Assembly: GCA_964551815.1 (NCBI GenBank)
Contig: CAZKEL010000015.1
Location: 12,097-44,096, forward strand
Length of the DNA: 32,000 nucleotides
Origin: an uncultured bacterium
Lineage (GTDB): Bacteria; Fidelibacterota; Marinisomatia; SCGC-AAA003-L08; D37C17
Reading direction: 5' to 3'
Below the pieces are notes generated by a model that saw nothing but the letters and a program-made list of their open reading frames with translations, made no database searches and had not been told where the DNA came from. The position numbers were made by a program, and so were the translations under genes. Of this stretch, positions 7,011 through 26,531 are shown piece by piece (the first letter of the stretch is position 1; each line of letters opens with the position of its first letter).

Positions 7011-7059
7011 CACTGCCTAATACCTTTAAATTTAGAATACAGGAAAAGCCTAAATAAAT

Positions 7060-7980
7060 ATGGACGATATTTTTTCCCGATTATCACAACTGAAAAAAGA
7101 GAGAAAGGCAGTAATTCTCGCTCATTATTATCAAGATCCTGATATTCAGGATGTTGCCGATGTAATGGGAGACAGTTTAGCCCTTGCACAGCATGCTGTG
7201 AAAACTGATGCAGAGGTTATCCTTTTCTGTGGTGTTCATTTTATGTGTGAAACTGCTAAGATTCTAAACCCGGGAAAAACGGTGATATTACCTGATATGG
7301 ATGCCGGCTGTTCTCTGGCTGACAGCGCACCGAGAGATGAGTTTAAAAGCTGGGTAGAAAGTCACCCTGACCATACTGTTATCAGTTATATCAACTGCAG
7401 CGCAGAGGTTAAGGCAATGTCTGATATAATCTGCACTTCATCAAATGCTGAGAAAATTTTAAACAGCCTGCCAAATAATGAAAAAATCATTTTTGCTCCG
7501 GATAAATTTTTAGGCTCTTATCTAATGGAAAAGACGGGGAGGGATATGCTGCTTTGGAACGGATCCTGCCAAGTACATGAGATATTCTCTGAGAAGGAAC
7601 TTGTAAAATTGATGATACGACACCCTGGGGCAGAGGTGCTTGCTCATCCTGAATGTGATGAAAATATTTTACGGCATGCCCATCATATCGGGTCTACCAC
7701 CTCCATCATCAACTACGGTGCTAAATCAAATACCACAGAATTTATTATAGCCACAGAACCGGGAGTAATTCACCAAATGGAGAAAGCTAATCCGGATAAG
7801 ACTTTTATACCATTACCTTCCAATGATGGTTGTGCCTGTAATGAATGCCCACACATGAGGTTAAACACTTTAGAAAAGATGGTGACCGCACTGGAAAACC
7901 TCTCACCGGAGATCACCATGGAAGAAGATTTGAGAATTAAAGCCCTGGTTCCCCTAGAAAGGATGTTGGCACTCAGTTGA
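7060..7980 (+). CDS. nadA: Quinolinate synthase
   Basis: Conserved NadA blocks are present: AVILAHYYQDPDIQDVAD, GVHFMCETAKILNP, YINCSAEVKA, AHPEC and CACNECPHM. Confidence 0.95.
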   Translation: MDDIFSRLSQLKKERKAVILAHYYQDPDIQDVADVMGDSLALAQHAVKTDAEVILFCGVHFMCETAKILNPGKTVILPDMDAGCSLADSAPRDEFKSWVESHPDHTVISYINCSAEVKAMSDIICTSSNAEKILNSLPNNEKIIFAPDKFLGSYLMEKTGRDMLLWNGSCQVHEIFSEKELVKLMIRHPGAEVLAHPECDENILRHAHHIGSTTSIINYGAKSNTTEFIIATEPGVIHQMEKANPDKTFIPLPSNDGCACNECPHMRLNTLEKMVTALENLSPEITMEEDLRIKALVPLERMLALS

Positions 7981-8840
7981 TTGAATACCCTCAGCATCTC
8001 TCCCTCTCGGCCTCATACATAAGAGAAAAAATTGCTTCCTTTTTAAAGGAGGATCTTCCCGGCGGAGATAAAACCACTTCAGCTACCATTTCTGGCAGTT
8101 CAGAAATTTCAGCCCATATTATTGCTGTGGAAAAAATGGTATTTGCCGGCGAAACAATTATTCCTGAATGTTTTGGGGATGAATGCAAAGTAGATAATCT
8201 ACTAAAAGATGGCAAGCATCTGAAAAAGGGAGAAATAATCGGATTAGTTACCGGAGCAGCATCAACAATACTTTCCCGGGAAAGGGTTATGCTGAATCTT
8301 GTGCAGCGGTTATGCGGCATCGCCACCCAAACACGGGAATATGCTCAAACCGCAGCTCCTTTTGGGGTGAAAATTTTGGACACCAGAAAGACAACCCCTG
8401 GCCTGAGACTGTTTGAAAAGTATGCTGTAGCTGTAGGAGGTGGACATAATCACCGCTTAGATCTTTCCAGTGGAATTTTAATCAAAGATAATCATATCGC
8501 AGCAGCAGGTTCGGTGGAAAATGCAATTAAAAGTACCCGTGCTCAAAACCAAGAATTACCCTTAGAATTGGAAGTGGATAACTTATCCCAAATCAGAGAG
8601 GCACTTACAATTGGAGTAGATGGATTTCTGTTGGACAATATGGATAGAGAGAAAATTATTAGGGCTGTAAATCTCATCCGAAATTCACGAAAAGGAAATG
8701 ACATTTTTATAGAAGCTTCCGGAGGGATAACCCTTAATAATATTGAAGAATATCTGGATACAGGTATCAATGCAATTTCTGTGGGTGCTCTCACTCATGG
8801 AGTAAAAAGTAGAGATATTCGATTGGAATTTCTGTCATGA
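7977..8840 (+). CDS. nadC: Nicotinate-nucleotide pyrophosphorylase (carboxylating)
   Basis: Motifs LDTRKTTPGLRLFEKYAVAVGGGHNHR, LIKDNHI and IEASGGITLNNI. A TTG start overlaps the nadA stop (GTTGA), and the stop overlaps the nadB start (ATGA). Confidence 0.9.
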   Translation: MIEYPQHLSLSASYIREKIASFLKEDLPGGDKTTSATISGSSEISAHIIAVEKMVFAGETIIPECFGDECKVDNLLKDGKHLKKGEIIGLVTGAASTILSRERVMLNLVQRLCGIATQTREYAQTAAPFGVKILDTRKTTPGLRLFEKYAVAVGGGHNHRLDLSSGILIKDNHIAAAGSVENAIKSTRAQNQELPLELEVDNLSQIREALTIGVDGFLLDNMDREKIIRAVNLIRNSRKGNDIFIEASGGITLNNIEEYLDTGINAISVGALTHGVKSRDIRLEFLS

Positions 8841-11241: not shown

Positions 11242-12075
11242 TTAACTGTTGACTTTTATGGCTTTGTTTTTCCGCAGGATATAATGGGCTTCAGCGGGGA
11301 ATTGTTTCTTTTCTACTTCAAGTTTATAAGATTTCAAAGCATCCAGCATCTGGGAACTTAGATTTGTATATTGTTTGGAATGTTTTGGGGTGTGACCATT
11401 ATAGAGACCAATAATGTCATGCAATACCTGAATTTGCCCATCGCAATAGGGACCTGCACCAATGCCAATAGTAGGTATGTCAAGAAGGCTGGTAATTTCC
11501 TCAGCTAAGTCGGCAGGGATTCCTTCTAACACAACGGCAAAAGCACCGCAATCCTGAACGGCCAGGGCATCTTCTTTAATTTTCTCAGCTTCTAAATCAC
11601 TTTTCCCTTGGATGCGGTATCCTGAGCTGAGGTGAAAAGATTGAGGGAGCAGTCCAACATGACCCATCACCGGAATTCCTGCTTCAATAATTGCCTTTAT
11701 CTGGCTGGTGTAGGCAGTACCACCTTCCAATTTTATAGCTTCTGCACCAGACTCTTTTACGAATCTTCCGGCATTTCTCACCGCATCTTCAACAGAGGCT
11801 TGATAAGACATAAAGGGCATATCTGCCACCACCAAAGCATTTGTGGCTCCCCTTCTGACTGCCCTGGTAAGAAAAATTAATTCATCCATGGAGATGGGAA
11901 TAGTTGTATCCAGTCCATAAATAACCATGGCAGCACTGTCACCCACTAATAAAAGCGGAATGCCTGCGGAATCTGCATTTTGGGCAGAAACATAATCATA
12001 GGCAGTCACCGTTGCAAAAGGTGTGGCTTCCCTTTTAAACCTACGGATATCTCTGATGGTAATTTTGGAATTCAT
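11242..12075 (-). CDS. panB: 3-methyl-2-oxobutanoate hydroxymethyltransferase
   Basis: Motifs TAYDY, LLVGDS, VVADMPF, AIKLEGG, PVMGHVGLLPQ and IGIGAGPYCDGQIQV. Confidence 0.93.
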   Translation of the reverse strand: MNSKITIRDIRRFKREATPFATVTAYDYVSAQNADSAGIPLLLVGDSAAMVIYGLDTTIPISMDELIFLTRAVRRGATNALVVADMPFMSYQASVEDAVRNAGRFVKESGAEAIKLEGGTAYTSQIKAIIEAGIPVMGHVGLLPQSFHLSSGYRIQGKSDLEAEKIKEDALAVQDCGAFAVVLEGIPADLAEEITSLLDIPTIGIGAGPYCDGQIQVLHDIIGLYNGHTPKHSKQYTNLSSQMLDALKSYKLEVEKKQFPAEAHYILRKNKAIKVNS

Positions 12076-12078
12076 TTT

Positions 12079-12456
12079 TTAAGCAAATACTGCTTCTTCA
12101 TTACAGGTGGAGGTAATTTCGTTATCTGAATTTACATGCACAATTTGTGGTTGGTGATAGGCTACTTCCTCCTCGGTCAACTGGCAATATCCTACAATAA
12201 TCACCAAATCTCCCTTGTGAACCAGATGAGCTGCAGCTCCGTTTATACACACTTCTCCAGAGCCTCTCCCGCCTTTAATGACATAGGTTTCTATTCGGCT
12301 GCCATTGGTAATATCCAACACCTGAACTTTTTCAAATTCCCGAAAACCGGCAGCATCCATTAAATCTTCATCTAAAGTTATGGAACCCACATAATGCAGA
12401 TCGGCTTCTGTTACCGTTGCCCGGTGTATTTTTCCTTTTAACATTTCAATGATCAA
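12079..12456 (-). CDS. panD: Aspartate 1-decarboxylase proenzyme
   Basis: [25 protein letters not shown] contains the Gly-Ser self-cleavage site. NGAAAH is also present. The N-terminus aligns with the classical MIRTMLQGKLH start. Confidence 0.9.
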
Positions 12457-12695: not shown

Positions 12696-13568
12696 ATGCA
12701 ATTTTCACGAAATGTGTTCACCATTCTGCTAACTGCTATTTTTCTGATTTCATGCGGAGGAAAGAAAAGCGAAGTGGAAGCTACCCCCGATACCACAGAA
12801 GAAACCATTACCATGGGTAACCACAATACTTATCCCGTTGAACAGACTGCAGTAGAAAGAAATGTGCAGGAAATTATTGAGGGGCTGAATATGGATATTA
12901 AAAAGCTCCGCGCAGAATTGGACTATCAACATGAAAATTTGAGTAAACTGGAAGCCCAATCCCAGATATGGGCAAATCCATTCGCCATTTACAACAAAGA
13001 AATTGTGTTAGATAATGGTAGTTCAATCTTTGGGAAAATTGTTTACCAAGATCAGGATGTAATGAAAGTAGAAACCCTCATCGGTCAGCTCATAATTGAC
13101 AGAAACACGATCATCAGGGTGGTAAATCAGGTAAGTGCTTATGGTAATTTTGAGAAAAACAATACAGATGCTGCTCTGTCAGCAGCCGATCCGGAAGACC
13201 CCTCTGGAATAAACCTGATTCAGAAACGCACAAAATCACTTTCTGCAAATCTGGTACTGGTAGGGGATATCTCCGAAGAAAAGGATGCTTCCGGTAATAC
13301 CATATTGACTGGTGAAGTAAAAAATGTGGGAAACAAACGGGCAGATTTTGCCAAAATTATATTCACTTTCCGTTTAAATTGGCAGGGTGACACAAAAACT
13401 CTCACTGCATTTATAAACGGAGTAACCAATACTTTCGATACGGGAATATCATCTGATAACAGCATTCTCCCTCATGCGGTAGGAAATTTTGAGTTGATGA
13501 TTCCCCGATCTTTTGGCACCTTTATCGGCTATAGTTATGACATTGACTGGAGTCAATATGAGGGCTGA
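12696..13568 (+). CDS. Predicted lipoprotein with a coiled-coil segment and a beta-rich C-terminal domain (function unknown)
   Basis: Signal peptide plus lipobox (TAIFLISC|GG). A heptad-like segment NMDIKKLRAELDYQHENLSKLEAQ is present. It is the first gene of a tightly spaced co-directional array. Confidence 0.6.
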   Translation: MQFSRNVFTILLTAIFLISCGGKKSEVEATPDTTEETITMGNHNTYPVEQTAVERNVQEIIEGLNMDIKKLRAELDYQHENLSKLEAQSQIWANPFAIYNKEIVLDNGSSIFGKIVYQDQDVMKVETLIGQLIIDRNTIIRVVNQVSAYGNFEKNNTDAALSAADPEDPSGINLIQKRTKSLSANLVLVGDISEEKDASGNTILTGEVKNVGNKRADFAKIIFTFRLNWQGDTKTLTAFINGVTNTFDTGISSDNSILPHAVGNFELMIPRSFGTFIGYSYDIDWSQYEG

Positions 13569-14187
13569 TGGCAGCTTCAGGCTGGCTTTAATTATCTGCC
13601 TTTTCGGAATGATCTATGCTGAAAAGATAACCTTGTGGGATTTTGGTGTCATCATAAAAGAGGAACAGTCTCAAATACCAGCCACCAATGTGAATGCCCA
13701 GGCAGCGCCGGAGATAAAGGCACTCATCTCAGACCCTTTTATAGCACCGAAAAAATCGTCTGAGGTTCAGTTTCATCAGCCAGTTGAAAAAGTATCCCCA
13801 ATTAGAAGGGTAACCGGTGAAAACTTTCGGGAGGTGGAAAAATTTATTCAAAGGCATACACTTCAAAAAAATTTTAATCATATTATTCAATCTCTTGAAG
13901 ATAGTGATTTGACGGAATTAACGCTTTCAAACCGTGCAGAAATTCAATTTTGGCTGGCAACTTCATTTATTGAGACAGGACAATTTCAAAAAGCTTTACC
14001 CTATGCACTTTGGGCAGGCTCAAACAGAGGGTCTGACAGAGATTTATTCCTTACGGCTAAAATTTATGAAAAAACCGGCGAAACAGCAAAAGCACTGTAC
14101 CAATACCAGCAGCTCATGTCTCTCTACCCTGACAGCGACTACTACCATTCAGCAAAAATTAAATCCAGAATAATCGCCCGCAGCTAA
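13558..14187 (+). CDS. Secreted TPR-like protein (YbgF/BamD-style C-terminal repeats)
   Basis: I prefer the ATG at 13558 (GGAG 5 nt upstream) over 13513. It has a hydrophobic signal-like N-terminus (FRLALIICLFGMIYA) and a C-terminal TPR-like sequence (QFQKALPYALWA...AKALYQYQQLMSLYPDSDYYHSAKIK). It overlaps the previous gene by 11 nt. Confidence 0.5.
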   Translation: MRADGSFRLALIICLFGMIYAEKITLWDFGVIIKEEQSQIPATNVNAQAAPEIKALISDPFIAPKKSSEVQFHQPVEKVSPIRRVTGENFREVEKFIQRHTLQKNFNHIIQSLEDSDLTELTLSNRAEIQFWLATSFIETGQFQKALPYALWAGSNRGSDRDLFLTAKIYEKTGETAKALYQYQQLMSLYPDSDYYHSAKIKSRIIARS

Positions 14188-14190
14188 AAA

Positions 14191-15531
14191 ATGACCAAAC
14201 CCGGAATTTTATTTCTACTTGTCTTGGTTATTGGATGGGAGCAGGCTGAGGCAAATTCCAGAATTTCTTACTCCCGCCCGGGAAATATGATACGTATTCC
14301 CAGCGTTGATCCTTCCATGAATAATAAATTGTTGGAGATCAATGTGTCATCTGAATACCTGTCATCCTCACAAAACAATTCAGGCTTTGCGGTGAATGCC
14401 ATGTCTCCTAATGGGTATTTATATGGTATTTCTATGGTAAACCCCGTCAATCCTGTCAATTCGGTTGAACTGGGTCTTCATGTGCAGCGCACCCTGTTAG
14501 AGTATGGGAATGTGAATCTGGATGTGGGTATCCATGATTTACTCTTTCGTTCGGGCAGCGACTCCACCGACGGGTTGGATACAAGAGGTATTTCCCTATT
14601 TGGAGTGCTCTCCAGCCAGAAGAGGTTTTCAGATTTTGCCATTGCCACCCATTTAGGTTTTGGATCGGGTAAAATTAATGAAGACTCCCATTTATTTGAG
14701 ACAAATCCAAGTCAAAATCTGGGGGTCTTTCTTGGGTTTAAGTTTACGACTCCCATTTTGAAAAAAAACGGTGGGTTAAGTTTTTTAACAGAATTTGACG
14801 GTACTGGCTTAAATCTTGGTCTTAACATTCCCATTTTTAATTCCTATCATATTAATTTTGGTATTACTCATTTTGAAAATTTTGGTAATTTTGCCACTGA
14901 AGACCGAGCCGGAACAGAATGGGAAGCCTTAAAAGGAAACGCTCCTTCTGTTACCTTTGGGGTGAGCATGAACATACCCCGGGCGGTATCTGCAGAAGAT
15001 GAAACCGAAGAGGAAACACGCGTAGGAGACGGCATTTATGCTGTTACGGACTCGTCAATTTTATACTATGAACCCATCTGTGTTGAAGTGGTTGAAACAT
15101 TGAGAGACTCCATCAGGGTCAATCAAAATACTATTGAAAATTTAAAGGCGCATAACAATATGCTTCTCCATTCTGAAGCCATACTGGTAGATTCTACACA
15201 AAAAAGTTTGTTTCGTGAACAGACCAGTCAATTGAATCAGAATAAGGCAATGCGTCATTTATCCAGATCACTGCGGTTTTTCTATTCTGAGCAGTACAGA
15301 GATGCCCTCTCTGAAGTGAATCTGGCAATAGAACTGAATCCCCAATTAGCTATTGCTTACGGGCGCAGGGGATCAATTTATTATAAATTGGGAGATGACC
15401 GCAGGGCTACCTTAAACTGGAATGTAGCTTTGCAGTTAGATCCGGAATTTACAGAAATTTACGATATGCTGAAGGCAGCAGAAGAGAACCGTCTTCAGCC
15501 TGTTGAAATAGGTAAGAAAACAGGAGATTAA
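14191..15531 (+). CDS. Secreted protein: N-terminal Gly/aromatic beta-rich domain (possible outer-membrane barrel) + coiled coil + C-terminal TPR
   Basis: Signal peptide MTKPGILFLLVLVIGWEQAEA. About 270 aa show alternating beta-like segments (GLHVQRTL, ISLFGVLS, LGVFLGFKF, HINFGITHF, SVTFGVSMNI). Canonical TPRs follow (AIELNPQLAIAYGRRGSIYYKLGDDRRATLNWNVALQLDPEF). Confidence 0.55.
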   Translation: MTKPGILFLLVLVIGWEQAEANSRISYSRPGNMIRIPSVDPSMNNKLLEINVSSEYLSSSQNNSGFAVNAMSPNGYLYGISMVNPVNPVNSVELGLHVQRTLLEYGNVNLDVGIHDLLFRSGSDSTDGLDTRGISLFGVLSSQKRFSDFAIATHLGFGSGKINEDSHLFETNPSQNLGVFLGFKFTTPILKKNGGLSFLTEFDGTGLNLGLNIPIFNSYHINFGITHFENFGNFATEDRAGTEWEALKGNAPSVTFGVSMNIPRAVSAEDETEEETRVGDGIYAVTDSSILYYEPICVEVVETLRDSIRVNQNTIENLKAHNNMLLHSEAILVDSTQKSLFREQTSQLNQNKAMRHLSRSLRFFYSEQYRDALSEVNLAIELNPQLAIAYGRRGSIYYKLGDDRRATLNWNVALQLDPEFTEIYDMLKAAEENRLQPVEIGKKTGD

Positions 15532-15534
15532 TGT

Positions 15535-16347
15535 ATGAATCTGGGTACCGTAATAGGATTAGTATTAGGTCTTGTGCTTATGGGAGTTGCGTCTGTTTTA
15601 GCATCAATGGGTGCCAATGTCCCTATGAGTGCGTTAGTAGATCCCGTCAGTTTTTTAATTGTGGTAGGGGGATCCATCGCTGCAACTGCCATCGCTTTTC
15701 CTTTAGAGGATGTGCTGGCGGCCTTCGGCGGGTTTGGAAAAGTATTCGGAACTCAAGGCTTTACCTTTAAAGATGTAGTTATGGATTATGTGAATTTAGC
15801 AGAACAGGCAAGAAAAGGTGAACTGGCAAAAGCTATTGAGGAAACTCCTGAACATATGCCCTTTCGATTAGGCTCTATTAAAGACGGGCTACAAATGATT
15901 GTGGATGGATATTCGCGGGATGACATTCGTGAAATTATGGAAAATAAAGAGGAATACCGATCTGTAAGGGAAATAAAAAAAGCAAACGCTATGGCAAAAA
16001 TGGGTGAATATGCCCCGGCTTTTGGAATGATCGGAACGCTTATCGGGCTGGTGTTCATGCTGGGATCCATGGCAAACCCCCCGGAACCTGGAGTTGACCC
16101 TGCTGCGAAACTGGGTGGTTCCATGGCGGTGGCTCTTATAACAACACTCTATGGTGCTTTCTTTGCCTTTTTCTTCTTTGGTCCTTTTTCAGATCAGCTT
16201 AAATACGAAAACGAAGATAAAAAAATTGAGTCTGCCATTCATGTGGAAGGCATTCTCTTGCTCCATGCAAAAACGCACCCCATTATGGTGAGAGATAAAT
16301 TAAATGCCTTTTTAGCACGGAAAGACCGCTTGAAAGATGAAGGATAA
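15535..16347 (+). CDS. motA: MotA/PomA-like stator channel protein (MotA/TolQ/ExbB family)
   Basis: Four-TM topology with a cytoplasmic loop of about 100 aa between TM2 and TM3. TM3 motif YAPAFGMIGTLIGLVF and TM4 TTLYGAFFAFFFFGPF carry both conserved prolines. AGGAG lies upstream of the ATG. Confidence 0.85.
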   Translation: MNLGTVIGLVLGLVLMGVASVLASMGANVPMSALVDPVSFLIVVGGSIAATAIAFPLEDVLAAFGGFGKVFGTQGFTFKDVVMDYVNLAEQARKGELAKAIEETPEHMPFRLGSIKDGLQMIVDGYSRDDIREIMENKEEYRSVREIKKANAMAKMGEYAPAFGMIGTLIGLVFMLGSMANPPEPGVDPAAKLGGSMAVALITTLYGAFFAFFFFGPFSDQLKYENEDKKIESAIHVEGILLLHAKTHPIMVRDKLNAFLARKDRLKDEG

Positions 16348-16352
16348 GCTGA

Positions 16353-17336
16353 TTGGCTAAGCAAAAATGCCCAGATTGTCCTCCTGAAGGGCTTCCCGGA
16401 TATATGGGAACCATGGCAGACATGTTTACCCTCCTGTTTGCTTTCTTCGTTCTCATGTTCTCTCTGGCTACCATGGACCCTGCTAAATTGGATGCCCTTG
16501 GTGGTGATAAAGCAGGAGCTGCTGATGCCAAAGAAGCAAAAGAAGCCGTTGAAGAAATAAAGAAAGAAATGCAGGAACTAAAAGAAAACGGAATTACAGA
16601 AATTAACGGTAAACCCATAGAAGAATATGCCGACAGTCTTATAGAACAGAAAATGAAAGAGACAATTCCCCCTCCGAAATTAGCGGAAGTTCGGAAGGAT
16701 GTAGCAGAGATCATTGAAGATATGGAATTGGACACCACAGCAAATCTCTCCATGAGAGACCAAAGAGGAATAGCATTTGAGTTAAATGGAGATATCTGTT
16801 TTAAACAGCTTTCCGCAGATATGCAGCCGGAACTGATACACTTTTTAGATGCAGCCGCTGACAGCTTTTTGGTGAACCCCAATGATAAACGCCAGGTGAT
16901 TGTTGAAGGTCATACGGATAATTTACCTATACCCAAAAAATTTAAAACCCGTTATCCTACAAACTGGGAGCTTTCCACAGCCCGTGCATCTGCTGTAGTA
17001 AATTATTTGATTGACAGGGGAGTGGATGCCTCCCGTCTGGTTGCTCATGGCTATGCGGAGCGCTGGCCTGCAGATCTTACCTGGTCTGATATGCGGAAAG
17101 GCTATGTTGAAGAACAGAAGGGCTCAAAAAAAATTGATCCCAGAACTGGGCAGGCATCTTTTGAAGGGGATATTGGCAGGTCTGATGTAAAGAAAAAACG
17201 CATCCCTATTCCCACCATGATTGATTCTCTCAATTCTACGGTGGAGTTAAGAAGAAAGAACAGACGAATTAAAATTATTTTTACCTATAATAATTATGTT
17301 GATGGTTCAGACCCATGGGTGCCTCCAAAAAATTAG
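16353..17336 (+). CDS. motB: MotB-like stator protein with an OmpA-type peptidoglycan-binding domain
   Basis: TTG start with GAAGGA 7 nt upstream. The N-terminal CPDCPPEGLPGYMGTMADMFTLLFAFFVLMF carries the conserved channel Asp (D23). OmpA-like blocks are VIVEGHTDNLPI, YPTNWELSTARASAVVNYL and RRKNRRIKIIF. There is a coiled-coil linker, and an extra segment of about 55 aa inside the OmpA-like domain. Confidence 0.85.
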   Translation: MAKQKCPDCPPEGLPGYMGTMADMFTLLFAFFVLMFSLATMDPAKLDALGGDKAGAADAKEAKEAVEEIKKEMQELKENGITEINGKPIEEYADSLIEQKMKETIPPPKLAEVRKDVAEIIEDMELDTTANLSMRDQRGIAFELNGDICFKQLSADMQPELIHFLDAAADSFLVNPNDKRQVIVEGHTDNLPIPKKFKTRYPTNWELSTARASAVVNYLIDRGVDASRLVAHGYAERWPADLTWSDMRKGYVEEQKGSKKIDPRTGQASFEGDIGRSDVKKKRIPIPTMIDSLNSTVELRRKNRRIKIIFTYNNYVDGSDPWVPPKN

Positions 17337-17403: not shown

Positions 17404-18729
17404 ATGACCAATAAAACAGGTCGGTATTTCTTACTAATTGCTATTTTCACCCTGCTTTGGAACCAGCAGACCAACTACCTTGCACAGAAAATAGCCATTG
17501 AAAATTCATATAGGGATAAGGTGAATTCTGCTGTTTCCCGTATTTTGGGACAAGAAAAATTCCTCGTAATCGTGAATGTGGAATTCTCAACCATGGGAGG
17601 TACACTGAAAAAAGGAAGTGCTTCCTCCGAGGGGAAGGGAAATACCTATACACCTGTCCCCGGTCTGCCCACCCTGCCGTCTTCTTCAGGAAAATCTTCC
17701 ACATCATCAACAGGCAGTAAAACTCTCTCAGCCAATGATTATAGTATTGGCAGGGTAGAGGTTACCGTCGGTATTGATGAAACTATCGTTACCGGCTCCG
17801 TCAAACAGGAAATAAAACAAGTCGTTGCCAGAGTCATTCCTGAAACAGCGGACTGTGAGGACTGTATCAAAATTGAAGCCATGGAGTTTCAAAAGAGTAA
17901 AAAAGATCAGAAAATTGATGAATTAGTACAAAAAATTGAAAATCTTGAAACGGCAAAAAGACGGGCAGATATTGCTGCTGATTCTATCCGCTTAAATGAA
18001 TTAGAAAGACAATTAACCGAAGCAAATTCTATTAAACAGACTTGGGAGGCTATGGCAAAAGCCCGGGAATTGCAGCAAATGAAGCAGGACTCAATCCGCT
18101 TTGAGAATCTGGTGAAATCAGAGCGAGACCGAAAAATACAGGACTCCATCAAATTCGTAAATACAGAAGCACGGTTGGAGCGGGTTATCGAAAGTAAAAT
18201 AAAATCGGACTCAACCATTATCAGCGAAACCATGGGCATTTTGAAACAGACAACGGGTACAGGGGAAGAGAAAGAAGAGTCCATTTTAGGGATGGATATT
18301 GGGGGAGGCAGTTCTGACATAATGAGCTCTGTGATTTTTATTCTCTTAATAGTCGCCCTCATGATTGTTACCTTTTTAGCGGCAAATAATAAAAAACCTA
18401 AAACAGTTTATTTAAAACCTAAAGGGAAAGACAAAGAGCCAAAGAAGAAAGAAAAGAAAGAATCAAAGGGGAAAGACAAAAAAACCAAGAACGGCTCAGA
18501 TGAACCACCAGTCAATGAAACTCCTGCACCAGAGCCAACATCTGAACCGACACCTCCACCCCCAAGACCTGATGAAGATGCACTGCGTTCTGAAATAAAA
18601 TCACTGCGGCAAACGGCTGTATCTCTTACCGTAGGTGAAAAAGAGGGTGCATCCGCTCTTATTAAAGAGTGGTTGTCAGATAATCCAAATAAAGCAGACG
18701 AGGGTGGTGAAGAAGGTGGAGAGGAATAA
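17404..18729 (+). CDS. Truncated FliF-like (M-ring-like) two-TM protein with a long periplasmic coiled coil and a FliG-docking-like C-terminus
   Basis: TM1 is at aa 8-20. An RBM3-like pattern follows: YRDKVNSAVSRILGQEKFLVIVNVEF, then a Ser/Gly/Pro-rich insert, then IGRVEVTVGIDE...VKQEIKQVVARVIPE...CIKIEAMEF. Compare the FliF pattern VxVxAxLDF / RLSVAVVVN / GDxxxVxxxxF. A coiled coil spans aa ~165-265 and TM2 spans aa ~306-326. Then come a Lys-rich and a Pro-rich linker, then ASALIKEWLSDN, which resembles the Salmonella FliF C-terminus VVALVIRQWMSND (from memory). AGGAG lies 8 nt upstream. Confidence 0.55.
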   Translation: MTNKTGRYFLLIAIFTLLWNQQTNYLAQKIAIENSYRDKVNSAVSRILGQEKFLVIVNVEFSTMGGTLKKGSASSEGKGNTYTPVPGLPTLPSSSGKSSTSSTGSKTLSANDYSIGRVEVTVGIDETIVTGSVKQEIKQVVARVIPETADCEDCIKIEAMEFQKSKKDQKIDELVQKIENLETAKRRADIAADSIRLNELERQLTEANSIKQTWEAMAKARELQQMKQDSIRFENLVKSERDRKIQDSIKFVNTEARLERVIESKIKSDSTIISETMGILKQTTGTGEEKEESILGMDIGGGSSDIMSSVIFILLIVALMIVTFLAANNKKPKTVYLKPKGKDKEPKKKEKKESKGKDKKTKNGSDEPPVNETPAPEPTSEPTPPPPRPDEDALRSEIKSLRQTAVSLTVGEKEGASALIKEWLSDNPNKADEGGEEGGEE

Positions 18730-18735
18730 GCCATT

Positions 18736-19683
18736 ATGAAGACACTTGAAGACCTGACAGGTTACGATAAAGCAGCTATTATTTTTGACATTCTGGGAGA
18801 TTCTCTCGCTTTGAATATGTTTAAGGATATTCCTGAACCTGAGTTTTATGAGCTGCGAAACCATGCGAAAAACTTGCGGAATGATGTACCTACTTCTGTT
18901 AAAAAAGAAGTGTTGGAGGATTATTATTTCAAAATGCTTTCAGGGGAGAAGTATAAAGAAGAAACGACCATTGAGAATATGTTCGACTTTCTGGAATCTT
19001 TGGATGATGAACAGTTGTATGCCCTACTATCTCCGGAAAAACCCCGCGTCATAGCCCTTGCCCTTGAACAGTTAGACAACGAAAAGCGCATGACTTTTCT
19101 CTCAAAGGTGAATACAGAAAAGCAGAATAAAATAGTTATTGCAACAGGGGAGTTGAGTGATATTCCGCTGGAAGCTATTATTTTCACTGCCAAGGAGTTA
19201 AAGAAGAAAACGGCCTTTCTGCCTAAACCGGTTCAGTTTTCAAGAGGCGGCGGCAGGTCTGTTTCCGATATGCTGGGGAAAATGCCGGAAGATGAAGCAA
19301 TGCAGTATTTAGATCAAATGAAGATTAACAATCCCGATTTACTTGCTGAAGTGAAAAAATACTTCCTGCTCTTTGATGACATCATGAACATGCCGGAAGA
19401 TCTGGCAGCCACTTTTTGGGGCGACCCGGATATTGACCTTGAAATCATGGCAAAATCTTTAAAGGAACTTGAAACCGAAACAGTAGAAAAAATTCAAGGG
19501 TATCTGCCAGGGAAAAAGCAAGCCATGTTCACCCCTCATGAAGGAGCGCTTTCAAAGCGGGAAATTGATGAAGCCAAAGGGGCTATAAAAAATATCCTGC
19601 AAGGCAAGATAGATTCAGGAGATATAAATATTGAAGATGTTTTGGCTGCCCCTGAAATTGAAGAAGAAGGAGCCGAAGAATAA
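18736..19683 (+). CDS. FliG-like rotor/switch protein homologue
   Basis: Collinear with FliG over its full length. N-terminal LTGYDKAAIIFDILGDSLALNMFKDI matches LTGxxKAAILLxxLG. Middle PEKPRVIALALEQLDNEKRMTFLSKV matches EHPQTIALILSYL. FLLFDDIMNM matches MFVFEDL. C-terminal LSKREIDEAKGAIKNILQGKIDSGDINI matches VRLxDVEEAQQKIxxxxRxLEEEGEIxI. Its length (315 aa) is typical of FliG. Confidence 0.8.
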   Translation: MKTLEDLTGYDKAAIIFDILGDSLALNMFKDIPEPEFYELRNHAKNLRNDVPTSVKKEVLEDYYFKMLSGEKYKEETTIENMFDFLESLDDEQLYALLSPEKPRVIALALEQLDNEKRMTFLSKVNTEKQNKIVIATGELSDIPLEAIIFTAKELKKKTAFLPKPVQFSRGGGRSVSDMLGKMPEDEAMQYLDQMKINNPDLLAEVKKYFLLFDDIMNMPEDLAATFWGDPDIDLEIMAKSLKELETETVEKIQGYLPGKKQAMFTPHEGALSKREIDEAKGAIKNILQGKIDSGDINIEDVLAAPEIEEEGAEE

Positions 19684-24459: not shown

Positions 24460-25068
24460 ATGGTTCAATTGTTTATTGATGGCGGCGGGTTTATGTGGCC
24501 CATCCTTTTTATTTTCATCATTGGTTTTGTGTTCGTTATTGAACGCCTATACCACCTCTTTAAAGGATTATCAAGTAATGAAGAATTTGCCTACGAAATA
24601 GCAGACACGGTAAAAAATTCCGGACTTGATTCTGCTGTTTCCAAATGCGAAGGTGCCCAAGGACCTGTAGCCAACCTCTGCCTGGCAGCCTTAGACCGCG
24701 GTAACTTAGGTGCAGATGAAGCGGAACATGCACTGGACCATTCAGGTTCAATAGAAATGGCCTCCATGGAAAAAAATATGACTTGGATTTCTCTCTGCAT
24801 CGCCACGGCTCCCATGTTGGGCTTTTTGGGAACGGTTTGGGGTATGATTCAGGCATTTAATGATATTAAAATGGCAAATGATATTTCTCCCGCCGTTGTG
24901 GCAGGAGGGATTTCAGTAGCACTGCTTACTACTGCCTTTGGTCTGGTAGTGGCTGTGGTTCTACAGGTTTTTCAGAATGCGGTTCTGTATATTATTGATA
25001 ATCAGATCGTCACCTTGCAGAAATCTACTACGGCTCTGCTTCATGCCATAAAAGATTCAGTAAAGTAA
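24460..25068 (+). CDS. exbB: MotA/TolQ/ExbB-family proton channel (ExbB-type)
   Basis: 202 aa and three TMs. The motif is IATAPMLGFLGTVWGMIQAF...GGISVALLTTAFGLVVA. It is followed by two ExbD genes and a TonB gene. Confidence 0.85.
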   Translation: MVQLFIDGGGFMWPILFIFIIGFVFVIERLYHLFKGLSSNEEFAYEIADTVKNSGLDSAVSKCEGAQGPVANLCLAALDRGNLGADEAEHALDHSGSIEMASMEKNMTWISLCIATAPMLGFLGTVWGMIQAFNDIKMANDISPAVVAGGISVALLTTAFGLVVAVVLQVFQNAVLYIIDNQIVTLQKSTTALLHAIKDSVK

Positions 25069-25086
25069 TTTGGCAGGTAGAAAACA

Positions 25087-25488
25087 ATGATTAAGAAAGA
25101 AAGACGACCGATGCAGGAAATCAATTCCTCCTCAATGGCGGATATTGCCTTTCTCCTGCTGGTCTTTTTTCTGGTAACCACCACCATTTCTATGGATAAG
25201 GGAATTAGTCTGGTGCTCCCATCTGAGGGAAATGAGTTGGAAGTAAACCGCAAAAACATTGTTAATATTCTAATGAATGAATCCGGAAAAGTCTTAATGG
25301 ATGATGCTCCAACTAAAGTAAACGCTATCAAAAACATCGTTGAGAAGAGACTTGCCGCAAACCCCAATTTAATATTTTCTGTGCAGACCCATCCCCTCAC
25401 AAAATATCAAGATTATCTCAGGGTACTGGATCAATTAAAAGAGGCAAAAGCAGGTAAAATATCCATTGCAAATCCGCCGGAATTTTAA
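25087..25488 (+). CDS. exbD: Biopolymer transport protein ExbD/TolR
   Basis: 133 aa. The N-terminal EINSSSMADIAFLLLVFFLVTT is a single TM carrying the conserved Asp, followed by a periplasmic alpha/beta domain. Confidence 0.85.
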   Translation: MIKKERRPMQEINSSSMADIAFLLLVFFLVTTTISMDKGISLVLPSEGNELEVNRKNIVNILMNESGKVLMDDAPTKVNAIKNIVEKRLAANPNLIFSVQTHPLTKYQDYLRVLDQLKEAKAGKISIANPPEF

Positions 25489-25491
25489 AAA

Positions 25492-25902
25492 TTGAAGATT
25501 GCCAGAAAAACTCATACCAGCCGCGAAATATCCACTGCCTCATTGCCGGATATTATTTTTATGCTGCTCATTTTTTTCATGGTGACCACGGTCATGCGGG
25601 AATATGAGGGACTGGATGTTGTCATGCCTCGTGCCAAAATGATTGAAAAGCTGGAAAGTAAACGGCATACTTCCTATATCTGGGCAACCAAAGACGGGCT
25701 GGTTTCCGTAGATGACCGTATAATTCATATCAATGATCTGTCGGGGTTAATGTACACAAAAATTGCCAAAGATCCGAAAATTACGGTGTCTTTGAAATCG
25801 GATGAAAAAGCTACCATGAAACTCATCACGGATATTCACACTCAGCTGAGAACCGCCAACGCTTTAAAACTCAGTTATTCAGCCCTAACAAAAACCAACT
25901 GA
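25492..25902 (+). CDS. exbD: Biopolymer transport protein ExbD/TolR (second paralogue)
   Basis: TTG start 3 nt after the previous stop. EISTASLPDIIFMLLIFFMVTT is a TM carrying an Asp. Confidence 0.8.
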   Translation: MKIARKTHTSREISTASLPDIIFMLLIFFMVTTVMREYEGLDVVMPRAKMIEKLESKRHTSYIWATKDGLVSVDDRIIHINDLSGLMYTKIAKDPKITVSLKSDEKATMKLITDIHTQLRTANALKLSYSALTKTN

Positions 25903-25904
25903 TT

Positions 25905-26531
25905 ATGCTGAGAATTGACCCCCTATTAGTTCATTACCCAGTTCGAATTCGCGAAGTCACCATCGGCGTCATCCTTTTTCTTACCTTGGTATTTTATATT
26001 TTCCCAAGATTTTTGGGGGAAGGGGAAAGAGTAGATTTTTCGATTGTAGAAGAGATTGAAACTTTTGATATTCCTCAGACTGAGCAGATAAAAATTCCAG
26101 AACCGCCTGCCCGGCCCTCTGTTCCCGTGGCATCTGAAGATGAATTTTTTGATGAAGACATAACCATTGAGGACACAGACTTCGATGATTTCGAAGATTG
26201 GGATACCCCGCCTCCAAAACCCTCTGAAGGTCCCGATGTGAAATTTATTCCTTATGATAAACCTCCCAAACCGAAAATTCCCATTCGTCCGGTATATCCG
26301 GAAATTGCACAGGAAGCAGGAATTGAAGGCACCGTTTACATCCAGTTTTTTATTGATGAAAAGGGAAATGTAACTGAAGCCTGGGTGCAGAAGGGAATCC
26401 CCAATACCGGTTTAAATGAAGCGGCCCTTGAAGCGGTCAAACGCTCACGATGGAAACCTGCTCAACAACGGGACAAGAAAGTGGGTGTATGGCAGACTGT
26501 TCCGGTGAAGTTTGAGCTGACTTCAAATTAG
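25905..26531 (+). CDS. tonB: TonB-family energy transducer
   Basis: An N-terminal TM anchor is followed by a Pro/Glu/Asp-rich spacer (PEPPARPSVP...PPPKPSEGP...KPPKPKIPIRP). The C-terminal TonB domain is YPEIAQEAGIEGTVYIQFFIDEKGNVTEAWVQKG...EAALEAVKRSRWKPA. Confidence 0.8.
   Translation: MLRIDPLLVHYPVRIREVTIGVILFLTLVFYIFPRFLGEGERVDFSIVEEIETFDIPQTEQIKIPEPPARPSVPVASEDEFFDEDITIEDTDFDDFEDWDTPPPKPSEGPDVKFIPYDKPPKPKIPIRPVYPEIAQEAGIEGTVYIQFFIDEKGNVTEAWVQKGIPNTGLNEAALEAVKRSRWKPAQQRDKKVGVWQTVPVKFELTSN

Follow-up and report, generated by a model that had tools for sequence, protein, structure and literature searches.

A divergent, truncated FliF homologue encoded with MotA, MotB and a FliG-like protein in Fidelibacterota, probably the membrane ring of a non-flagellar machine

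The window, meaning the whole stretch of 32,000 bp that was analyzed, contains a cassette of seven genes on the plus strand. The cassette encodes a lipoprotein, two TPR proteins, a flagellar-type MotA, a MotB, a protein termed mini-FliF here (the sixth gene) and a FliG-like protein.

12696..13568, + strand, lipoprotein of 290 aa with lipobox LISC, first gene of the cassette, of no known family
13558..14187, + strand, small TPR protein like YbgF/BamD with an N-terminal hydrophobic segment (Pfam TPR_6/TPR_2)
14191..15531, + strand, secreted 446-aa protein with a signal peptide, ~320 aa rich in Gly/Asn/Phe, and C-terminal TPRs
15535..16347, + strand, flagellar-type MotA, closest to MotP/PomA (PF01618, 4e-22)
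16353..17336, + strand, MotB with plug (MotB_plug, 1.6e-11) and OmpA-type peptidoglycan-binding domain (OmpA, 6.6e-15)
17404..18729, + strand, mini-FliF
18736..19683, + strand, FliG-like protein with N, M, and C domains

The cassette was conserved across Marinimicrobia/Fidelibacterota. It was present in loci L001-L013 and L017 with differing flanking genes, and one of its carriers was a streamlined genome of 1.8 Mb in a single contig. No description of the cassette was found in the open-access literature that was searched. The lipoprotein had no Pfam match and only weak NCBIfam matches to Lepto_7_Nterm. In 10 related loci its counterpart occupies this position, with identities of 39-92%. The small TPR protein, also conserved in position in related loci, gave weak NCBIfam matches to PorW/SprE, YbgF, and BamD. 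Its gene more likely starts at the ATG at 13558 than at the listed TTG at 13513. The 446-aa protein had identities of 34-93% in related loci. Only its TPR part (aa ~340-434) matched anything and the Gly/Asn/Phe-rich region was without a fold assignment. Comparison with PDB sequences yielded generic TPR repeats at most, both for the lipoprotein and for the N-terminal region of the 446-aa protein.

The NCBIfam matches of MotA were MotP (8e-48) and PomA (2e-42). The equivalents of E. coli MotA R90, P173, and P222 were invariant. The E98 equivalent was Ala in the window and Glu in distant orthologues. The channel Asp of MotB (E. coli D32) was conserved. A separate ExbB-ExbD-ExbD-TonB cluster was located elsewhere in the window, between 24460 and 26531. 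No FliM/FliN, rod, or obvious rotating output was encoded in the cassette. No other flagellar genes (export apparatus, rod, hook, filament) were found in the 32-kb window or in the gene tables of related loci L012, L013, L014, and L017. The sole cultured member of the phylum Marinimicrobia is non-motile (PMC11652737), and a SAR406 genome study reported type IX secretion genes and no flagella (PMC5596340).

The mini-FliF gene corresponds to the ORF at 17404-18729 on the plus strand and its product is 441 aa in length. The ATG is preceded by a strong Shine-Dalgarno sequence (AGGAG) at a distance of 8 nt. More than 235 close homologues were found, and there were 251 representatives at 50% clustering. 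Compared to an orthologue of 86% identity the dN/dS was 0.05. Given these homologues and this ratio, the ORF is not due to chance. With dS near saturation, dN was ~0 in the RBM, the transmembrane helix, and the C-terminus. Hundreds of intact orthologues were found at identities down to 23%, every time in the same cassette. The gene is under strong purifying selection. A promoter and terminator scan of the operon gave counts near those expected from shuffled sequence. The features listed in the initial annotation were all present in this ORF, which was divided as follows.

17404..17490, + strand, aa 1-29, signal peptide or signal anchor with the h-region YFLLIAIFTLLW (12 aa)
17491..17595, + strand, aa 30-64, first half of RBM3 (alpha1-beta1)
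17596..17742, + strand, aa 65-113, insert rich in Ser/Gly/Thr/Pro, located where FliF has its beta-collar
17743..17895, + strand, aa 114-164, second half of RBM3 (beta2-alpha2-beta3)
17896..18243, + strand, aa 165-280, single long, charged, proline-free periplasmic helix
18244..18387, + strand, aa 281-328, Gly/Ser linker followed by a transmembrane helix
18388..18567, + strand, aa 329-388, disordered cytoplasmic spacer, Lys-rich then Pro-rich
18568..18693, + strand, aa 389-430, near-invariant two-helix C-terminus, PDEDA.RSE..SLRQTAVSLTVGEKEGASALIKEWL.DNPNK, putatively docking FliG
18694..18729, + strand, acidic tail and stop codon, with the Shine-Dalgarno sequence of the next gene in the codons GGTGGAGAGGAA

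FliF is covered by the Pfam families PF01514 (RBM1/RBM2) and PF08345 (YscJ_FliF_C, the RBM3 of FliF), and its known structures include those from Salmonella (6SCN, 7CG7, 8T8P) and Vibrio (8Z5S). Mini-FliF itself matched no Pfam or NCBIfam model, falling below the Pfam threshold of PF08345. A profile of its own subfamily (A1) did not reach FliF among the PDB sequences. Because of the missing library match and the A1 result the link to FliF passes through sister proteins. With a profile of the wider family (A2) the five best PDB sequences were all FliF, with Vibrio FliF at the top (E = 4.4e-6). The matches placed query residues 35-132 on residues 270-402 (RBM3/collar) and residues 406-426 on 559-579 of 580, the C-terminal end. 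Using hhalign, aa 33-179 of mini-FliF aligned to residues 237-438 of E. coli FliF (E = 0.0013), a segment which corresponds to RBM3 and the collar by the domain boundaries of published Salmonella MS-ring structures. A pairwise chain led to the same region, with the window protein matching sister protein P0235 (BLASTP 3e-14) and P0235 matching E. coli FliF 238-438 (E = 0.001). PF08345 was detected in 9 of 44 family members and in essentially all of the 120 best P0235 relatives, and sister proteins reached 45 bits compared to the Pfam cut-off of 23.8. Some of the relatives are already labelled as FliF C-terminal domain proteins by NCBI and JGI.

The AF2 model of the window protein had the order alpha-beta-[insert]-beta-alpha-beta, matching the RBM order, with a pLDDT of 60-70 in the RBM part. 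In the Foldseek search of this model, a check proposed in the initial annotation, FliF RBM3 rings were the best matches with weak E values (0.01-0.2, none below 0.012) and OsmC/Ohr chains interleaved. The single RBM3-like module that had been claimed is therefore upheld by the A2 matches to the PDB, the hhalign alignment, PF08345 in the sister proteins, and the AF2 order. The claim that RBM1 and RBM2 are lacking was also borne out, as PF01514 was not matched by the window protein, the 44 family members, or the 120 best P0235 relatives. On this evidence mini-FliF is supported as a divergent and truncated homologue of FliF. In FliF, RBM1 and RBM2 encircle the type III export gate, for which mini-FliF therefore has no seat.

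The N-terminal hydrophobic stretch of mini-FliF comprises 12 residues only (aa 8-19). Most relatives have a canonical cleavable signal peptide, with A/S/G at -1 followed by Q, in place of which the clade of the window protein has a non-canonical FLW-NQQ. It had been proposed that the protein keeps the FliF topology of two transmembrane helices separated by a periplasmic domain. The second helix was clear (aa 306-328). The first is doubtful, and with it the two-helix topology, because of the short h-region and the cleavable signal peptide of the relatives. RBM3 begins ~10 residues past the signal sequence. In the AF2 model aa 30-64 form a helix that extends to aa 48, then a strand spanning aa 54-62. 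This part aligned with E. coli FliF 237-270 and with Vibrio FliF from residue 270, and dN was ~0 compared to locus L004. The segment of aa 65-116 contains 13 S, 9 G, 7 T, and 4 P, and the insert is disordered in the model (pLDDT ~30). It retains an IPGxP motif and G87 and P92 are invariant. At the tip of the collar mini-FliF has IPGLPTxPS where FliF has VPGALSNQP. An insert in place of the collar had been claimed, and the alignments put the Ser/Gly/Pro segment exactly at the long inter-strand segment of FliF, which we take to be the beta-collar. The second half of RBM3 has strands at aa 114-124 and 155-159 and a helix at aa 131-144 in the model, and aligned with E. coli FliF ~379-432. An invariant C151-x-D-C154 stands where FliF has RGDxL.

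One unbroken helix was predicted for aa 166-280, with pLDDT >90 over aa ~170-250. It contains no Pro, 1 Gly, 23 K/R, and 22 D/E. Residues 165-245 are variable and residues 246-275 are invariant. The long coiled coil of the initial annotation is thus confidently modelled as a helix, and its coiled-coil nature is plausible given a heptad signal that was moderate with register shifts. The periplasmic part of the protein might reach the outer membrane. A single strong transmembrane helix follows at aa ~306-328, where the Kyte-Doolittle mean over 19-mers reaches 3.0 and dN was ~0. The Lys-rich (aa 329-362) and Pro-rich (aa 366-388) spacers described after it are present. The direct DNA repeat AAGGG(G)AAAGACAAA is real and occurs at 18422 and 18466. 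It was rejected as a feature in its own right as it only encodes KGKDK twice in the low-complexity Lys spacer.

The C-terminus of mini-FliF, ...GEKEGASALIKEWLSDNPNK, was near-invariant across 27 homologues (51-88% identity) with dN ~0. W423 did not vary among the 44 members of the wider family. The bare C-terminal peptide gave no FliF match among the PDB sequences. With a profile of the C-terminal 45 aa (A8) the last 21 residues of Vibrio FliF ranked first in the whole PDB (E = 0.042), and the C-terminus of E. coli FliF aligned at the right place without significance. These results agree with the FliF-like C-terminal helix that had been described.

The FliG-like protein scored above the Pfam cut-offs for FliG_N (7.7e-7), FliG_M (1.7e-6), and FliG_C (1.5e-10). 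Its gene starts 6 nt past the mini-FliF stop codon in the same frame, and its Shine-Dalgarno sequence (GGAGAGGA) lies within the final codons of the mini-FliF gene. Judging from this arrangement the FliG-like gene is translationally coupled to mini-FliF. The position directly upstream of a FliG homologue, as noted initially, was the same in all related loci. All three domains were conserved, at 76-96% identity. The FliG-like protein retains a Gly-Gly linker, an E.P as in EHPQ, and the (Y/M)FxLF motif. At the equivalent of FliG R281 there is an invariant KK, and the D288/D289 segment is 3 residues shorter with a Glu nearby. Key torque residues in E. coli include MotA E98 and FliG D288/D289, neither of which is fully kept here. 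A fusion model of the mini-FliF C-terminus and the FliG-like protein (FliG rows only) had a mean pLDDT of 48 and was too poor to read. Its best Foldseek matches were all FliG, a weak confirmation of the FliG-like fold in a low-confidence model. The C-terminal helices of mini-FliF are proposed to dock the N-domain of the FliG-like protein.

Mini-FliF resembles FliF in its RBM3 split at the collar position by an insert with a VPG/IPG motif at the tip, in the transmembrane helix after the periplasmic part and the long disordered cytoplasmic linker that follows, and in a gene directly upstream of a fliG homologue. It also shares the C-terminal helix pair ending ...V(I/V)(K/R)xW(L/M/I)xD/N, which binds FliG-N in FliF. 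It differs in having no RBM1/RBM2, a collar insert reduced to ~50 low-complexity residues, a ~115-residue helix between RBM3 and the transmembrane helix, CxDC in place of RGDxL, and, in most family members, a signal peptide instead of the first transmembrane helix at the N-terminus. Its genetic context also differs, being a cassette with TPR proteins and a lipoprotein in a phylum for which flagella are not known. The MS-ring of FliF has ~33-34 subunits.

Also close to mini-FliF are the ~500-aa "FliF C-terminal domain-containing proteins" of Marinimicrobia/Fidelibacterota (P0235, P0245, P0502), the sister proteins referred to above. They have the same architecture, the same seven-gene cassette, and the same C-terminal motif with its invariant Trp. 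They differ in a longer collar insert, a FliF-like RGDxL, and PF08345 scores above the threshold, whereas the subfamily of the window protein is shorter (about 430-445 aa) and below every library threshold. SctJ/PrgK/YscJ of injectisomes and SpoIIIAG/SpoIIIAH of the sporulation channel share the alpha-beta-beta-alpha-beta ring-building motif, and SpoIIIAG also has an insert inside its RBM, but they are without the FliG-binding tail and a MotAB partner. Membership of SctJ/YscJ/PrgK, which are inner-ring lipoproteins with RBM1 and RBM2, was not indicated. Mini-FliF had neither PF01514 nor a lipobox, and injectisome chains did not appear in the PDB searches by sequence or by fold. PF12685, of SpoIIIAH, was matched weakly (9e-4) by 1 of 44 family members, and neither protein was among the Foldseek or PDB sequence matches. 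TolA and, more loosely, PflA/PflB of Campylobacterota motors have a long periplasm-spanning helix beside a membrane anchor as in mini-FliF. As in the cassette, TPR proteins are encoded beside a stator of the MotA/TolQ family. TolA differs in its N-terminal transmembrane helix and in being without an RBM and a FliG-binding tail, and no sequence relation to mini-FliF was detected.

Mini-FliF probably (roughly 70%) forms the membrane ring of a MotAB/FliG machine that is not flagellar. From the N-terminus its domains are a Sec signal peptide or weak signal anchor, RBM3 with a shortened collar insert, and the ~115-residue periplasmic helix absent from FliF. Then come one transmembrane helix, a disordered tether in the cytoplasm rich in Lys/Pro, and FliF-type C-terminal helices proposed to bind FliG-N. 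Copies would assemble through RBM3 into a membrane-anchored ring. Each C-terminus would hold one FliG-like subunit beneath the membrane, forming a rotor ring. Ion-driven MotA5B2 stators anchored to peptidoglycan would push the C-domain of the FliG-like protein and turn the ring. The palisade of helices and the RBM3 ring would transmit the motion into the periplasm, where the co-encoded TPR proteins and the lipoprotein may serve as scaffold or output.

The same genes could form a machine that does not rotate, in which mini-FliF is a membrane tether whose long periplasmic helix acts like TolA/TonB. In such a Tol-Pal- or Ton-like envelope machine MotAB would energize the tether through the FliG-like protein, or under its regulation, and pull on the TPR/lipoprotein partners and the outer membrane without a large ring. 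The long helix, charged and placed between a periplasmic domain and a transmembrane helix, does resemble domain II of TolA. Like tol-pal, the cassette joins a channel of the MotA/TolQ family, an OmpA/Pal-type domain, TPR proteins, and a lipoprotein, and the small TPR protein matches YbgF/CpoB and BamD weakly. The canonical torque charges are kept only in part. However, MotA is of the flagellar type with a large cytoplasmic torque domain and not of the TolQ/ExbB type, MotB has the flagellar plug, and the window has a distinct ExbB-ExbD-ExbD-TonB cluster. RBM3 and the FliF C-terminus are documented solely for ring building and FliG docking, and a three-domain FliG conserved to the degree given above fits a precise stator interface. 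We consider a non-rotating machine unlikely.

A reduced but genuine flagellum is less likely still. Mini-FliF would then be its MS-ring, and the export apparatus, rod, hook, and filament genes would lie elsewhere in the genome. The FliF-FliG gene order with MotAB is a flagellar hallmark, some sources label the relatives FliF/YscJ, and the search for flagellar genes covered the 32-kb window and related loci. Against this, RBM1/RBM2, with their role in holding the export gate, are missing in every family member examined, the partners in all loci are TPR proteins and a lipoprotein with no flagellar genes, and the cassette persists in a streamlined genome. The non-motile cultured member and the SAR406 study also argue against a flagellum. 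That the gene is a decaying relic of a lost flagellum, or encodes an unrelated coiled-coil membrane protein resembling FliF by chance, is very improbable. No model matches mini-FliF itself and half of the protein is low-complexity or predicted disordered, but the FliF profile matches fall in the right regions and order. The dN/dS of 0.05, on which the decaying relic was rejected, and the near-absence of nonsynonymous change at near-saturated dS stand against it, as do the hundreds of intact orthologues in an unchanging cassette.

A membrane ring of a non-flagellar machine is thus the preferred reading of mini-FliF. As a FliG-like protein and MotA/MotB are encoded beside it in a phylum whose cultured member is non-motile, the machine may be a rotary motor without a flagellum. 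A more specific and tentative possibility is a stand-alone, export-free rotary motor, made of a FliF-RBM3 ring, a helix stalk, a FliG ring, and MotAB, which would drive an envelope or surface process or preserve a stage of the flagellum before type III secretion. Secretion, movement of surface adhesins, and outer-membrane remodelling are suggested as such processes. To our knowledge FliF and FliG have been described solely as parts of the flagellum. If true, the stand-alone motor would be the first case of the flagellar rotor being employed outside the flagellum, in an abundant non-flagellated marine phylum, or alternatively a stage of flagellar evolution that preceded the union of the rotor with type III secretion.

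A FliF cut down to its RBM3 module is retained phylum-wide, and under strong purifying selection, with a three-domain FliG, flagellar MotAB, TPR proteins, and a lipoprotein, in a phylum that is abundant in oceans worldwide. If the module rotates, the stator-rotor core of the flagellum can work without an export gate, rod, or filament. This would bear on the origin of the flagellum and on a question raised again in PMC12199754. It would also provide a far simpler rotor for structural and single-molecule study, and would indicate a new energized envelope process in SAR406 bacteria.

The mini-FliF gene was the sixth of seven genes in a co-directional run flanked by panD (divergent) and uvrA (convergent). 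The ATG was preceded 8 nt upstream by a Shine-Dalgarno sequence, AGGAG. The genes of this cassette and the features of mini-FliF were as follows:

Gene 1, 12696-13568: lipoprotein, 290 aa, lipobox LISC, without known family
Gene 2: small TPR protein
Gene 3: secreted protein, 446 aa, TPRs at the C-terminus
Gene 4: MotA
Gene 5: MotB
Gene 6, 17404-18729, plus strand: mini-FliF, 441 aa
Gene 7: FliG-like protein
mini-FliF aa 8-19: short hydrophobic N-terminus
mini-FliF aa 65-116: stretch rich in Ser, Gly, Thr and Pro
mini-FliF aa 166-280: single long helix (AF2; pLDDT >90 across ~80 residues)
mini-FliF aa ~306-328: one strong transmembrane (TM) segment
mini-FliF: Lys-rich and Pro-rich spacers
18422 and 18466: DNA repeat AAGGG(G)AAAGACAAA, coding merely for KGKDK, twice
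mini-FliF C-terminal end: ...ALIKEWLSDNPNK

All sequence features named in the initial annotation were found on inspection of the ORF. The small TPR ORF as listed starts with TTG at 13513 and shares 56 nt (13513-13568) with the lipoprotein gene; translation more likely begins at the ATG at 13558, after which comes a hydrophobic segment. The lipoprotein was 39-92% identical in all related loci with that position and was better kept than mini-FliF. Three of its orthologues weakly matched a Leptospira lipoprotein N-terminal domain.

No Pfam or NCBIfam model matched the mini-FliF protein, and a profile of its own subfamily searched against the PDB did not reach FliF. In distant relatives of 500-630 aa (E = 1e-9 to 1e-16) PF08345, the FliF RBM3/collar family, was found above the Pfam cut-off right after the signal peptide. 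PF01514 (RBM1/RBM2) was never found in these relatives, which upheld the proposed absence of RBM1 and RBM2. Mini-FliF matched P0235, a member of the ~500-aa sister group, by BLASTP (3e-14) across the N-terminus, the RBM and into the helix, and P0235 matched E. coli FliF 238-438 (E = 0.001). When the wider family alignment of 44 sequences was searched against all PDB sequences the five top matches were all FliF. The best was Vibrio FliF (E = 4.4e-6), with two aligned stretches, RBM3/collar and the last 21 residues ALVANEPELAAQVVKNWMNDN. By hhalign, positions 33-179 of the same alignment fell on E. coli FliF 237-438 (E = 0.0013), which we take to be the entire RBM3-plus-collar unit from the boundaries of the published Salmonella MS-ring structures. 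The low-complexity insert took the place of the long segment between the RBM3 strands of FliF. It retained a collar-tip motif (IPGLPTxPS compared to (G)VPGALSNQP in FliF), and G87 and P92 were invariant.

An AF2 model, built from the close subfamily alone, showed its elements in the order of an RBM: helix-strand-[disordered insert]-strand-helix-strand. The top Foldseek matches in the PDB were FliF RBM3 rings (9a67, 8z5v, 6scn, 8ftf and others), with weak E values (0.012-0.2), OsmC/Ohr chains interspersed and a domain pLDDT of only 60-70. The RBM3-like module split by an insert was thus recovered by the PDB search, hhalign, the model and PF08345 in the relatives, and the structural comparison proposed for it placed FliF RBM3 rings best at these weak values. 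Because of the PF08345-bearing relatives, the chain through P0235, the family profile, hhalign, the collar motif and the AF2/Foldseek results, the link is firm despite the lack of a library match. Mini-FliF is accordingly read from its sequence as a true, highly diverged FliF homologue, with RBM3 kept and RBM1/RBM2 gone. An invariant C-x-D-C of the CXXC type was located in the periplasmic RBM (aa 151-154, 17854-17865), at the exact site of RGD(S/V)L in FliF and the ~500-aa sister clade. Its two cysteines might pair in a disulfide or coordinate a metal.

A two-TM topology as in FliF had been proposed. The TM segment at ~306-328 was borne out; the first is doubtful. The N-terminal hydrophobic run is only 12 residues long and most family members have a textbook Sec signal peptide (K/R n-region, h-region of 9-19 aa, A/S/G at -1, then Gln), so mini-FliF is more likely single-pass, or weakly anchored at its N-terminus, than a copy of two-TM FliF. 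In the relatives this signal peptide lies 8-10 residues ahead of the conserved LxQK(I/L)xxEN which opens RBM3. Cleavage is uncertain in the window's clade because the corresponding point has the non-canonical FLW-NQQ. If cleaved, RBM3 would be tethered to the membrane solely via the 115-residue helix (~17 nm when straight), placing an RBM3 ring far into the periplasm. This helix lacked Pro and contained a single Gly along with 45 charged residues. It had been described as a coiled coil; the long helix was confirmed by AF2, and since the heptad signal was moderate with register shifts, the term long helix is preferred and a coiled coil is regarded as unproven. A short internal repeat (DSIRF ... 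DSIKF, spacing 18 residues; aa 229-251, 18088-18156) marked the onset of its invariant membrane-proximal portion.

Purifying selection on mini-FliF was strong (dN/dS = 0.05 against an orthologue of 86% identity), and residues 389-430 were almost invariant within the clade (dN about 0). The C-terminal motif (L/I/M)(R/K)Q(S/T)(A/V)VS(M/L)(S/T)VG(E/Q)(K/P)E(G/T)A..I(I/V)K(E/D)W(L/M) was present in all 44 family members, with the Trp invariant. A profile of the C-terminal 45 residues alone ranked Vibrio FliF 559-579 (of 580) first of 177,635 PDB sequences (E = 0.042), in agreement with the suggested likeness to the FliG-binding helix of FliF. A FliF-FliG fusion chain ranked second. By hhalign the equivalent site in E. 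coli FliF was 531-548 of 552, without significance. FliG_N, FliG_M and FliG_C were each over the Pfam cut-off in the FliG-like protein. When the last 58 mini-FliF residues were joined to the FliG-like protein as a typed fusion, the model (mean pLDDT 48) was of too low quality to interpret. Docking of the two proteins is predicted from homology, conservation and gene order, which support it well but indirectly. The FliG-like gene lies directly downstream, as had been noted, starting 6 nt past the mini-FliF stop in the same frame. Within 18714-18738, the last mini-FliF codons, GGTGGAGAGGAATAA, hold the Shine-Dalgarno of the FliG-like ATG at 18736. The shared frame, short gap and enclosed Shine-Dalgarno suggest that the two genes are probably translationally coupled. 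This overlap may be an added constraint on the conserved acidic ...GEE tail.

The cassette MotA was of the flagellar type (NCBIfam MotP 8e-48, PomA 2e-42) and MotB had a plug and OmpA domain. The MotB channel Asp and MotA R90, P173 and P222 were conserved; the MotA E98 equivalent was Ala in the window and Glu in distant orthologues. The FliG-like protein retained the Gly-Gly linker, the E.P of the EHPQ motif and a (Y/M)FxLF motif, with an invariant Lys-Lys in place of R281 and the D288/D289 segment three residues shorter. MotB of the window's clade had a longer charged linker past the plug (16530-16680) and an 80-residue extension past the OmpA domain (17100-17336, aa ~245-327), both missing in E. 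coli MotB and distant orthologues.

The data above establish the homology, the architecture, the cassette conservation and the selection. The best-supported reading is that mini-FliF is a membrane ring protein recruiting a FliG-like ring on which MotAB stators of the flagellar type would act. The ring would form and rotate in a machine without export gate, rod, hook or filament, in which the lipoprotein and the TPR proteins would serve as a scaffold or output in the periplasm. The chief alternative is a force transducer resembling TolA that does not rotate; a true flagellum in reduced form is less probable. No further flagellar genes were found in the 32-kb window or in the gene tables of the related loci L012, L013 and L017. 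The sole cultured phylum member is non-motile (PMC11652737), and a study of SAR406 genomes names genes for type IX secretion but no flagella (PMC5596340). Both a decayed remnant and a fortuitous resemblance to FliF were contradicted by the data.

The seven-gene order was repeated in every related locus having enough sequence, including distant L012 and L013, with other flanking genes, and L017, a single 1.8-Mb contig. In L017 the 446-aa TPR gene (7023-8419) and the FliG-like gene (11499-12432) were each called as two ORFs, which could be assembly-error frameshifts or real decay in the lineage. The rest of the window encoded NAD and pantothenate synthesis, uvrA, a Ctp protease and succinate dehydrogenase. 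An ExbB-ExbD-ExbD-TonB cluster was located at 24460-26531, separate from the cassette, so a conventional Ton system is present besides the flagellar-type MotAB.

More than 235 close homologues (51-88% identity) were found, those named being from Candidatus Marinimicrobia. A species-level genome collection contributed 11 loci, all from Marinimicrobia/Neomarinimicrobiota MAGs. When 1.84 billion representatives were searched with a profile, 251 relatives were recovered; a separate search started from a distant family member gave more than 1,700. P0417 (cluster of P0149), a family member on a 2.3-kb contig, carried a Gammaproteobacteria source label, which probably reflects misbinning and not occurrence in a second phylum. 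Several Marinimicrobia/Fidelibacterota relatives are named 'flagellar M-ring protein FliF C-terminal domain-containing protein' by NCBI.

Automated annotation already assigns a FliF C-terminal domain to the sister proteins of ~500 aa and calls the neighbor FliG, so the bare FliF resemblance of the family is not new. The shorter subfamily to which the window protein belongs is missed by every library. A full-text search of open-access literature found no description of the cassette or of a FliF without RBM1/2. The mini-FliF cassette is of high interest for motor evolution.
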